This document shows, piece after piece, positions 22,068 through 23,660 of a stretch of DNA of 64,000 nucleotides. The position numbers and the translations under genes were made by a program. A model generated the notes under the pieces. The model worked only from the letters and a program-made list of their open reading frames with translations. It was not told the origin of the DNA and did not search any database. Source of the stretch: Candidatus Levyibacteriota bacterium (GTDB taxonomy: Bacteria > Patescibacteriota > Microgenomatia > Levybacterales > UBA12049). Positions within the stretch are counted from its first letter, which is position 1; every line of letters begins with the position of its first letter. The stretch covers positions 2,360 through 66,359 of the forward strand of contig JAGOPV010000002.1 of assembly GCA_017991775.1 (NCBI GenBank), in the 5' to 3' direction.

Positions 22068-23660
22068 TTTTTGAGAATTTGATCCTGGTTCAGGATGAAT
22101 GCTGGCGGCGTGCCTTAAGCATGCAAGTCGAACGGGAAGGTCCGCAAGGACCAACCAGTGGCAGACGGGTGAGTAACGCGTAGGAATCTACCCCTAGGAG
22201 GAGGATAGCCCACCGAAAGGTGGGGTAATACTCCATAGTCTCGTAAGAGTAAAGGACTTAACGGTCCACCAAGGGAGGAGCCTGCGTCCTATCAGCTAGT
22301 TGGCGGGGTAAAGGCCCACCAAGGCGATGACGGGTAGCTGGACTGAGAGGTCGATCAGCCACAACTGCACTGAGATACGGGCAGTACACCTACGGGTGGC
22401 AGCAACTGGGAATATTGCGCAATGGACGAAAGTCTGACGCAGCGACGCCGCGTGGAGGATGAAGGCCTTCGGGTTGTAAACTCCTTTTACTAAGCCGTTC
22501 ACAGCTTAGAGAATAAGCTCCTACTAACTACGTGCCAGAAGTCTCGGTAATACGTAGGGAGCAAGCATTATCCGGATTTATTGGGCGTAAAGTGTGCGTA
22601 GGCGTTCTTCATAGTCGTTTCTTAAAGACTGGGGCTCAACCCCGGGAGTGGTTACGATACTGGAAGAATTGAGGATTTATAGGGAAGCTGGAACAGTATG
22701 TGTAGCAGTGAAATGCGTTGATATATACTGGAACACCGATGGCGAAGGCAGGCTTCTGGGTATTTCCTGACGCTGAGGCACGAAAGCTAGGGTAGCGAAA
22801 CAGATTAGAGACCTGTGTAGTCCTAGCCGTAAACGATGTCCGCTAGCTATTCTCTCACGAAGTGCATAAGCACTTGATAAATATCAAATACTACCAATTT
22901 CAAATAAATACCAATATCCAATACATATGTTTTGGAAATTTGATATTTGATATTGGACATTTGAATTTACAAGCTTGTGCTTTTTGTGAGGGAGTGGTGT
23001 AAGCTAACGCGTTAAGCGGACCGCCTGGGGAGTACGGCCGCAAGGCTAAAACTCAAAGGAATTGACGGGGACCCGCACAACCTGTGGAGCGTGTGGTTTA
23101 ATTCGATACAAAGCGAAAAACCTTACCAGGGTTTGACATCATACCGTTTTATACTTTTGGAAACATTAGTAGATCCGTAAGGATGGTATGACAGGTGCTG
23201 CATGGCTGTCGTCAGCTCGTGCCGTGAGGTGTTCCCTTAAGTGGGGAAACGAGCGCAACCCCCATGAAATGTTAAATATTCATTTCAGACTGCCCTGTTT
23301 TTACAGGGAGGAAGGAGGGGCAGATGTCAAGTCAGCATGGCCCTTATACCCTGGGTTACACACACACTACAATGGCGAAAAACAACGAGTTGCAAGCTGG
23401 TAACAGCAAGCTAATCTCTCAAATTTCGCCTCAGTTCAGATTGAGGTCTGCAACCCGACCTCATGAAGTCGGAATAGGTAGTAATCGCGGATCAGCATGC
23501 CGCGGTGAATACGTTCTCGGGTCTTGTACACACCGCCCGTCAAGGCAGCAAAGTCAGGGGTGGATGAATACTCCTTTGGGGTAGAGTCCAAATTTGGCGA
23601 TGAGGCTTAAGTCGTAACAAGGTATCCCTTGCCGAAGCAGGGGATGGATCACCTCCTTTC
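22068..23660 (+). rRNA. rrs: 16S ribosomal RNA (about 1.59 kb) carrying an AT-rich expansion segment of about 110 nt in the V5 / helix-26 region
   Basis: 5' end GAGAATTTGATCCTGGTTCAGGATGAATGCTGGCGGCG. Internal universal blocks GTGCCAGAAG..CGGTAATAC and GCTAACGCGTTAAGCGGACCGCCTGGGGAGTACGGCCGCAAGG. 3' end GGATCACCTCCTTT. The distance from CCGTAAACGATG to GCTAACGCG is about 160 nt, against about 47 in E. coli. Confidence 0.9.

Follow-up and report, generated by a model that had tools for sequence, protein, structure and literature searches.

Introduction

Intervening sequences are a known kind of element in bacterial ribosomal RNA (rRNA) genes. The one in the 23S rRNA of Coxiella is 428 nt long, contains an open reading frame (ORF) for an S23p protein, is bounded by terminal inverted repeats and is excised by RNase III; tandem heptameric repeats of Coxiella vary in number between strains, and both the function and the origin of rRNA intervening sequences have been called unclear (PMC4990558). 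The rRNA insertions within the Candidate Phyla Radiation (CPR), likewise a known kind, encode LAGLIDADG, GIY-YIG and 23S_rRNA_IVP proteins, while ORF-less insertions below 200 nt were described as uncharacterized and possibly of the RNase III type (PMC11270868). Here, we analyze a 128-nt insert in helix 26 (h26) of the 16S rRNA gene on a 64,000-nt stretch of DNA from Candidatus Levyibacteriota bacterium (assembly GCA_017991775.1, contig JAGOPV010000002.1, positions 2,360 to 66,359 of the forward strand; hereafter the window, whose coordinates are used unless a locus with an L number is named), together with a related element upstream of rpsU, the gene of ribosomal protein S21.

Several other systems provide a background for this locus. 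Rickettsia palindromic elements sit inside functional genes at tolerated positions, and the double-hairpin elements and GC clusters of fungal mitochondria insert in variable rRNA regions and spacers. In eukaryotic ribosomes helix 26 is occupied by the expansion segment ES7S, and simple motifs recur among the expansion segments within a genome. Ribosomal protein S21 is located near the Shine-Dalgarno (SD) helix of the 30S subunit. As outlined below, the h26 insert is probably an ORF-less insertion of the intervening-sequence type whose core belongs to a palindromic repeat family, termed family A, which spreads to rRNA genes and spacers. Family A is a real family with copies in many contexts, and close relatives differ in whether its sites are filled or empty.

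The helix 26 insert of the 16S rRNA gene

The insert was placed by aligning positions 22740-23120 to the RF00177 model, and its limits follow from the two host strands of h26 recognized in this alignment:

22067-23659, plus strand: 16S rRNA gene (RF00177, 1359 bits, full length)
22846-22858, plus strand: host helix 26 stem, 5' strand, GCUAUUCUCUCAC (GCTATTCTCTCAC), from the cmscan alignment to the RF00177 h26 hairpin
22859-22986, plus strand: 128-nt insert at the apex of helix 26, facing a 4-nt consensus loop in cmscan
22859-22876, plus strand: 5' basal part of the insert, GAAGTGCATAAGCACTTG, forming a small palindrome of its own and pairing with 22969-22986 in the minimum free energy (MFE) fold
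22877-22968, plus strand: AT-rich palindrome of ~7-nt units, left xTCAAAT / xxCCAAT, right ATTTGAx / ATTGGAx, from Tandem Repeats Finder (TRF) and the fold
22895-22969, plus strand: family-A core (nhmmer E 8e-16), homologous to the copy in the rpsU leader
22969-22986, plus strand: 3' base segment of the insert, ACAAGCTTGTGCTTTTTG, resembling the base of the h26 insert of the Microgenomates locus L037 (CAAAAGCTTCTGCTTTTGG)
22987-22999, plus strand: host helix 26 stem, 3' strand, UGAGGGAGUGGUG (TGAGGGAGTGGTG), from the cmscan alignment to RF00177

The 16S expansion that an earlier note on this DNA had pointed out is real, since 164 nt lie between the conserved h26 blocks, where normally 34-47 nt are found, and the Rfam alignment attributes 128 nt to the insert. 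Its GC content of 0.27-0.30 compares with ~0.5 elsewhere in the gene, and its MFE of -61 kcal/mol (-57 to -61 kcal/mol across folds) with -31.8 +/- 3.8 kcal/mol for 200 dinucleotide-shuffled sequences, none of which folded as well (z = -7.76). The same note had described a set of separate hairpins. The small local palindromes do exist (AAGTGC-ATAA-GCACTT, ACAAGCTTGT), but the best fold is a single continuous imperfect rod, a long stem on the apex of a conserved rRNA helix, as expected of an intervening sequence. TRF reports two rows within the insert, 22880-22927 (period 17) and 22938-22968 (period 7, ATTTGAT x 4.6). The 128 nt hold no ORF and no endonuclease gene, and at 22740-23120 only small-subunit rRNA models match, even at E <= 0.01, with no intron model or other Rfam family among them.

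A related element in the rpsU leader

The second copy in the window is located upstream of rpsU:

60232-60260, plus strand: promoter-like site of rpsU, TTTACT-17-TAAAAT, which all relatives conserve
60270-60287, plus strand: small hairpin GAACGCATTTTATGCGTT, abutting the 5' end of the family-A element (sequence and fold)
60288-60370, plus strand: family-A palindromic element in the rpsU 5' untranslated region (UTR), ends AATTTCAAAT ... ATTTGAAATT (nhmmer E 1e-16, hairpin fold)
60375-60383, plus strand: SD block AAGGGGGTG, conserved in relatives (alignment)
60392-60574, plus strand: rpsU, ribosomal protein S21, 60 aa (PF01165, E 4e-12)

As the element lies between promoter and SD block, it belongs to the 5' UTR, where folding predicts a hairpin in the rpsU mRNA. 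A weak outer helix, in which GCCC near the 5' end of the leader can pair with the G-run of the SD block, is not conserved in relatives.

The similarity between this element and the 16S insert, noticed earlier from the sequence alone, lies far above background. Only one further match to the 27-mer AATTTCAAATAAATACCAATATCCAAT (22896-22922) exists in the window, at 60288-60314 with two mismatches (25 of 27 identical), and no match is expected by chance (0 in 100 shuffles). The Smith-Waterman score of 22875-22985 against 60225-60391 is 62, whereas 1000 dinucleotide shuffles gave 18.3 +/- 2.9 with a maximum of 32 and 47 real AT-rich stretches of the window, used as controls, reached at most 28; the alignment thus scores 15 standard deviations above the shuffles and twice as high as the best real control. 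The 16S insert resembles the rpsU leader because both carry copies of family A, and the leader copy is probably an independent insertion of this family. Both window copies have the same orientation relative to transcription.

Dispersal of the repeat family

Copies of family A share the ends AATTTCAAAT/ATTTGAAATT and have arms built of ~7-nt units. Both ends are present in the rpsU, L133, L142 and L150 copies, in which the arms are extended and imperfect. The further copies on which the repeat hypothesis of the earlier note turned were found beyond the single 27-mer match in the window, both in metagenome loci and in L006 and L008. When metagenomes were scanned with an exact 21-mer taken from the shared core, 21 loci were obtained; in seven of them the full or half palindrome continues outside the 21-mer. 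The same 21-mer had no match in viral contigs. In L133 a stretch with 85.6% identity to the 16S insert over 90 nt lies inside a 23S rRNA gene, at a hairpin tip where the Rfam alignment shows 111 nt instead of 6 (RF02541 positions 274-295). L142 and L150 contain full palindromes in spacers beside unrelated genes (DUF2090, a PEGA-domain protein). Only the left arm is present in L139 and L144, where it immediately precedes the rpmB (L28) promoter, and in L138, where it lies upstream of an EamA gene. Two more copies, in the ybeY-dnaX spacers of L006 (E 2e-8) and L008 (E 3e-7), were detected with a profile derived from six copies, and a profile match together with an AT-content scan of the gene placed a second copy in the L133 23S. 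Overall, the family was found in at least nine different contexts; of the ~7-9 that are independent, four are ribosomal genes.

The 21-mer matches in L132, L134-137, L140, L141, L143, L145-149, L151 and L152 were rejected as chance or coding matches that lack a palindromic partner. TIGR (tandem interspaced guide RNA) arrays, which CPR bacteria and phages carry beside a Tas gene, were likewise considered and rejected, the units here being ~7 nt long and arranged as an inverted pair, not 36-nt box C/D units with two spacers. Searching the window for long hairpins by folding proved too unspecific for use.

The order of the units in the arms varies between copies, and in the L133 23S the better-scoring orientation is opposite to transcription. 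Because the orientation relative to transcription is not fixed between L133 and the window copies, spread at the DNA level is indicated.

Slippage in AT-rich DNA might also have produced similar 7-nt arrays independently, for which the cryptic simplicity of eukaryotic expansion segments serves as a model. The construction of the arms from ~7-nt units, their changing order and the many period-7/8 arrays with other units in the window are what such convergence would leave behind. The shared stretches, however, are specific rather than simple, as the 25 of 27 identical positions illustrate, the same two ends recur in copies from different hosts, the score stands as far above shuffles and AT-rich controls as given above, and near-identical modules of ~170 nt occupy two sites of one 23S gene (see below). 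We therefore regard convergence as very unlikely.

The arrays could instead be functional DNA sites, either protein-binding or promoter-proximal with -35-like TTGAxA motifs, that are kept by selection, the rRNA copies being incidental. In accordance with this, right-arm units contain TTGAAA, TTGACA and TTGATA, the half-element of L139/L144 ends in TTGAAA 17 nt before the TATAAT of the rpmB promoter, other inverted arrays of the window abut extended -10 boxes (~32330, 51390 and 58945), and ribosomal genes make up the share of contexts stated above. To our knowledge no protein that binds family-A arrays is known. Since copies also occur in rRNA genes and in a 5' UTR, which are non-promoter positions, and are gained and lost between near-identical genomes, this explanation appears unlikely. 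Some copies may have a role at the DNA level, which would leave those inside rRNA genes unexplained.

Beside the family-A arm of L144 lies a GIY-YIG ORF. We rejected it as an autonomous partner of the family, because the alignment with L139 shows that it belongs to another element, which has 12-bp inverted ends of its own. This element (L144 2204-2500 against L139 8668-8747) has perfect ends TACGTTAGAGAC; its insertion point is the start codon of a gene that encodes a 213-aa protein, and the orthologous site in L139 is empty. It duplicates ATCCAT, with the result that both ORFs start with Met-Asp.

Turnover among close relatives

Ten public loci encode an identical S21 protein in the same HIT-rpsU-ybeY-dnaX order. 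Their promoter and SD blocks can be aligned throughout, yet the intervening 80-130 nt belong to four classes with no relationship to one another, and the palindrome is found in the rpsU leader only in the window and in L005, which is the same strain. L006 is 99.5% identical to the window in rpsU and 99.0% in dnaX and has a different rpsU leader nevertheless. A second variable site is located downstream:

60986-60994: empty ybeY-dnaX junction, TAG TCT ATG, with a 3-nt spacer

In L004 the junction likewise consists of TAG-TCT-ATG only, in L006 and L008 it is filled by family A, and in L001/L002, L003 and L007 it holds three other, unrelated palindromes. As the junction is filled in L006 and empty in the window, the elements come and go between genomes that are ~99% identical.

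These comparisons bear directly on the proposal of the earlier note that the rpsU leader mimics a 16S rRNA structure, which S21 would bind to repress its own mRNA. The common orientation of both window copies and the position of h26 near the SD helix (PMC9297842) would suit such a mechanism. Against it stand the four unrelated leaders found with identical S21 proteins between the same promoter and SD block, and the ~99% identical genome of L006, whose rpsU leader lacks the element. Furthermore, the element is also found upstream of the rpmB promoter, at ybeY-dnaX and beside unrelated genes, its better-scoring orientation in the 23S opposes transcription, and no Rfam leader matches 60200-62640 at E <= 1. 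Autoregulation by mimicry is accordingly regarded as extremely improbable.

The rpsU leader is also a site at which whole non-coding modules are swapped in. That of L004/L010 (L004 2724-2854), one of the four classes, is a copy of the dnaX-ybaB leader (window 62517-62607), with two 23-nt blocks of 95.7% identity and both copies ending in the SD block AAGGGTGGTG. The dnaX-ybaB module contains CCACTCC, which could pair with the SD, and matches no Rfam family at permissive thresholds. A resemblance between the spacer palindrome of L007 (CCTAATT units) and the h26 insert of L037 consists of a 15-mer seen by eye; BLAST was silent at E <= 0.05, and no claim is made.

Inserts in the rRNA genes of relatives

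A pattern scan for 16S genes in species-representative genomes was broad and also matched Anaerolineae, and the figures given here hold among the matches listed. The nearest 16S genes are 86-87% identical, one of them from a Candidatus Levyibacteriota metagenome-assembled genome. One protein of the window equals MBP6882036.1 of a Candidatus Levybacteria genome, and the window is accordingly assigned to Levybacteria (Microgenomates, CPR/Patescibacteria). At least eight 16S loci have an expanded h26 of 63-231 nt, consisting of AT-rich palindromes with short periodic units and differing sequences; five belong to Patescibacteria lineages with a name, among them Woesebacteria, Microgenomates and Levyibacteriota, and three come from bins with uninformative or wrong names.

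No 23S gene was found near the 16S in any CPR locus examined. L133 was assigned to Levybacteria through TrxB, which in this locus shares 76-81% identity with proteins of named Levybacteria, and 23S genes of related Levybacteria were reached via the TrxB neighbourhood. According to the AT-content scan, the L133 23S gene contains five insert-like AT-rich palindromic stretches, two of family A and three of a second family, B. In the relatives, L156, L159 and L162 among them, each of these five sites either lacks an insert and forms an ordinary short hairpin such as CCCCGATTTAATCGGGG or holds another palindrome family, so that presence is sporadic. In L162 two near-identical modules of ~170 nt, belonging to a further family (F), occupy two 23S sites. 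The filled 23S sites have a common GC-rich base, whose 5' side reads CTTGTnC-N3-GnACAAG and whose 3' side reads CTCGnnC-N3-GnnCGAG, and both sides pair together beneath the AT-rich rod. In the 1.2 Mb examined, 15 occurrences of the 5'-side motif were counted (11 in Levybacteria 23S, 2 in Woesebacteria, 1 in a bin labelled Gammaproteobacteria); by estimate, fewer than one is expected by chance. The exact 23S base motifs are not present in the base of the window 16S insert. Family B also matches a stretch in the 16S span of the Shapirobacteria locus L107 (E 1e-6).

The positions of these modules, all of which sit at 23S helix tips, were recorded as well. Family B (ACTTTAGGACTACAGGATTT...) lies at 713-799, 1876-1950 and 2246-2334 in the sense of the L133 23S, the L162 module with TTCGAAA/TTTCGGA units at 10745-10940 and 12015-12215, and a CTAATTT-unit module of L156 at 8106-8240 and 8863-9027.

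Other elements in the window

A Pfam scan of 53 of the ~60 ORFs in the window revealed two 23S_rRNA_IVP (PF05635) and two small GIY-YIG ORFs, all of them intergenic. The PF05635 ORF at 54866-55243 is bracketed by inverted arrays of GTAGTAx heptamers, which score 28 against a shuffle maximum of 23. Its cassette is an intervening-sequence-like element outside any rRNA gene. For the PF05635 ORF at 45782-46135 the flanks carry GCAGGTG-type 8-nt arrays (45745-45766) and a complementary CCTGC-rich stretch (~46190-46215), with a borderline inverted-repeat score.

The first cassette (54836-55266, ~431 nt; ORF E 7e-36) fits exactly between the stop of zwf (54835) and the start of gnd (55267), its arrays reading GTAGTAG GTAGTAT GTAGAAA GTAGTAT / ...ACATACTACATGAAACATTCTACTTACTAC. 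The second PF05635 ORF is encoded on the minus strand (E 1e-37; region 45745-46215). Among the GIY-YIG ORFs, that at 47803-48096 (minus strand; region 47794-48133) is bracketed by a 27-nt inverted repeat, TGTCATGCTGAACTTGTTTCAGCATCT / AGATCCTGAAACAAGTTCAGGATGACA. This palindromic 27-mer is found again, with no ORF, at 9096-9124, 15120-15186 and 38544-38614, closely upstream of several genes (topA, a UDG-family gene, glyA), and could be a mobile-element end or an operator. The other GIY-YIG ORF (56408-56662; region 56284-56840) is flanked by long inverted and direct repeats, TTCTTCGAAC.../...GTTCGAACAATAA, with a Smith-Waterman score of 47 against a shuffle maximum of 26.

Inverted period-7/8 arrays were also found between genes at 32240-32340, 51291-51395, 58811-58950 and 39950-40035, with the units GGTTTTC/GAAAACC, ATCGGTT/GAAAACC and AGATATTA/TCTCAATA. 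Three of the four end at the extended -10 boxes mentioned above (TGnTATACT), and one lies between convergent genes. Within coding sequence, a perfect (AAACAGC)x4.3 array at 9747-9776 falls into the Topoisom_bac region of the topoisomerase I ORF (9135-11213) and may be a short repeat insertion. A 984-aa ORF (29229-32183, minus strand; repeat region 29800-31810), whose product is probably a repetitive surface protein, contains 4.4 copies of a perfect 48-nt tandem repeat (31569-31777) and 18-nt repeats.

The surroundings of the 16S rRNA gene complete the picture:

21784-21811, plus strand: putative consensus promoter-like site 5' of the 16S, TTGACA-16-TATAAT, 12/12 consensus match
23952-23971, plus strand: terminator-like hairpin and T-run 3' of the 16S, from a consensus scan

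Rfam detects no 23S gene in the 64 kb, leaving the window 16S unlinked to any 23S, and no other Rfam family was found in the window at gathering score. Between 23660 and 25430 the 16S terminator is followed by an ORF (24105-24596) without a Pfam match in a region of ~50% GC, a very stable hairpin (24611-24720, -47 kcal/mol), tRNA-Cys, a 132-aa ORF and tRNA-Ile, which is set apart from the 16S, with no 23S nearby; at permissive thresholds no Rfam family matched 23660-24790. The 515 primer region of the gene (22530-22550) reads GTGCCAGAAGTCTCGGTAA, not GTGCCAGCAGCCGCGGTAA, and the 785 region reads GATTAGAGACC, so mismatches to standard amplicon primers are expected at both.

Discussion

In view of the parallels with the Coxiella and CPR elements and of the PF05635 ORFs with their arrays, the h26 insert is best placed as an ORF-less member of the intervening-sequence-like elements. 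The following course appears probable. Family A has been copied into the tips of rRNA hairpins, into short intergenic spacers and into 5' UTRs in Levybacteria and other Microgenomates, the copies presumably spreading at the DNA level. The pre-16S rRNA would then carry a rod of ~50-60 imperfectly paired positions that emerges from the solvent-exposed tip of h26. RNase III would remove this rod without religation, which would leave a 16S rRNA in two pieces of ~0.79 and 0.67 kb. By analogy with classical intervening sequences, we lean slightly towards such an excision. Subterminal small hairpins without a duplication would fit an IS200/IS605-like single-strand mechanism, which is considered here as a lead only.

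Several observations weigh against the proposed origin and processing. The 21-mer is identical by construction in the metagenome copies, whose independent evidence is confined to the similarity of their flanks, and the 64-kb window itself holds only two family-A copies. RNAalifold gave no useful covariation for eight copies, being uninformative here because the arrays shift register. The earlier note had suggested a small MITE-like (miniature inverted-repeat transposable element) palindrome at both places; the repeat was confirmed, but a strict MITE is not supported, as no transposase domain was found among the scanned window ORFs and target-site duplications are not consistent. The candidates obtained by comparing filled and empty ybeY-dnaX sites (TAAT, TTAAG/TTAAA, CT) are weak and inconsistent, and none is visible at the rpsU, L142 and L150 copies. 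In the relatives' 16S genes h26 is indeed expanded elsewhere, but the sequence of the window insert is not kept in the nearest ones, as L124 has 165 unrelated nucleotides and L112 a modest 63 nt. The contigs of near-identical strains stop in or before the 16S (L155 ~250 nt into it), and the h26 comparison is thus one with relatives of 86-87% identity. Excision and retention of the 16S rod were judged from the DNA sequence.

Retention is the tentative alternative to excision, less probable in our estimate though far from negligible, and it opposes only the processing step, not the origin from a repeat family. The rod would be kept in the mature 16S as a counterpart of ES7S, with a possible role at the platform or the mRNA exit. 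The h26 tip tolerates 63-231 nt across the expanded 16S loci listed, intermediate sizes included, the mismatches and bulges of the rod could hinder RNase III, the insert base resembles that of the distant Microgenomates 16S of L037, and h26 contacts the SD helix (PMC9297842). Against this stand the long double-stranded rods of bacterial rRNA precursors, which are typical RNase III substrates (PMC4990558), and the report of Brown et al. 2015, as summarised in PMC9297842, that CPR rRNA insertions are absent from transcripts. The insert sequence also differs even between 16S genes that are 87% identical.

A more far-reaching variant is that the rods act as functional modules, the h26 rod being retained in the mature 30S subunit next to the mRNA exit and the SD helix, and the homologous, partly complementary rods in the 5' UTR or promoter region of ribosomal genes (rpsU, rpmB) interacting with it or with a common binding factor. 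We consider this highly unlikely. If true, the expression of ribosomal components would be coupled to ribosome status, and a bacterial expansion segment would communicate with mRNAs by means of a mobile palindrome that seeded both.

Comparison with known systems

Ribosomal protein leaders that mimic rRNA (S15, S8, L1, L20 and others) share a structured element with rRNA, as the rpsU leader does here. In contrast to these, genomes that encode the same S21 do not conserve the rpsU element, which is a generic repeat also present elsewhere. ES7S and the mitochondrial elements belong to another domain or to an organelle and have no sequence relationship to the h26 insert, for which retention would be the less probable fate.

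MITEs, Correia, ERIC and REP/BIME elements, Rickettsia palindromic elements and the palindrome-associated elements derived from IS200/IS605 are short (80-170 nt), palindromic and dispersed, and in these respects family A is like them; like Rickettsia palindromic elements, it also lies within functional genes where an insertion is tolerated. With MITEs it has terminal inverted repeats, multiple copies and insertion polymorphism in common. It differs from the miniature repeats in its arms, which are arrays of ~7-nt units in changing order, and in that neither a consistent target-site duplication nor, among the window ORFs scanned, a transposase was found; the Levybacteria 23S modules additionally carry a conserved GC-rich base.

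The ORF-less CPR insertions (Tsurumaki et al. 2022, 2024; also, as cited, Brown et al. 2015) come from the same lineage, measure less than 200 nt, match no intron model and sit on the tops of stem-loops (PMC11270868). The novelty for the lineage claimed in the earlier note is reduced accordingly, short insertions of this kind being documented already as 'uncharacterized' (PMC11270868). None of these accounts describes dispersed palindromes common to 16S, 23S and intergenic DNA, and the term 'palindrom' is absent from PMC11270868. A limited literature search yielded no account of the location in 16S h26, of the construction from 7-nt arrays, of the sharing between 16S, 23S, 5' UTR and spacers, or of the turnover between near-identical genomes. 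Direct comparative evidence suggests that the rRNA inserts belong to a repeat population that is spread over the genome and turns over fast. For 16S surveys and for assembling CPR rRNA genes, the inserts and the unusual primer sites have practical consequences, and the locus offers a system in which the movement of such elements and their accommodation by ribosomes can be tested.

Classical intervening sequences, known from 23S helices 25 and 45 of Salmonella, Leptospira and Coxiella and more rarely from 16S, form a stem-loop at a helix tip, as is the case here. Like the h26 insert they have a stem of terminal inverted repeats and are sporadic among relatives, and their PF05635 protein family is encoded in the window beside similar arrays. 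Unlike them, the present insert lies in helix 26 of the 16S, has no ORF and contains a core common to non-rRNA sites, while the PF05635 cassettes of the window are located between protein genes instead of in rRNA. This combination of likeness and difference bears on the origin of intervening sequences, which has been debated since 1990 as to whether they are transposition remnants or arose otherwise.

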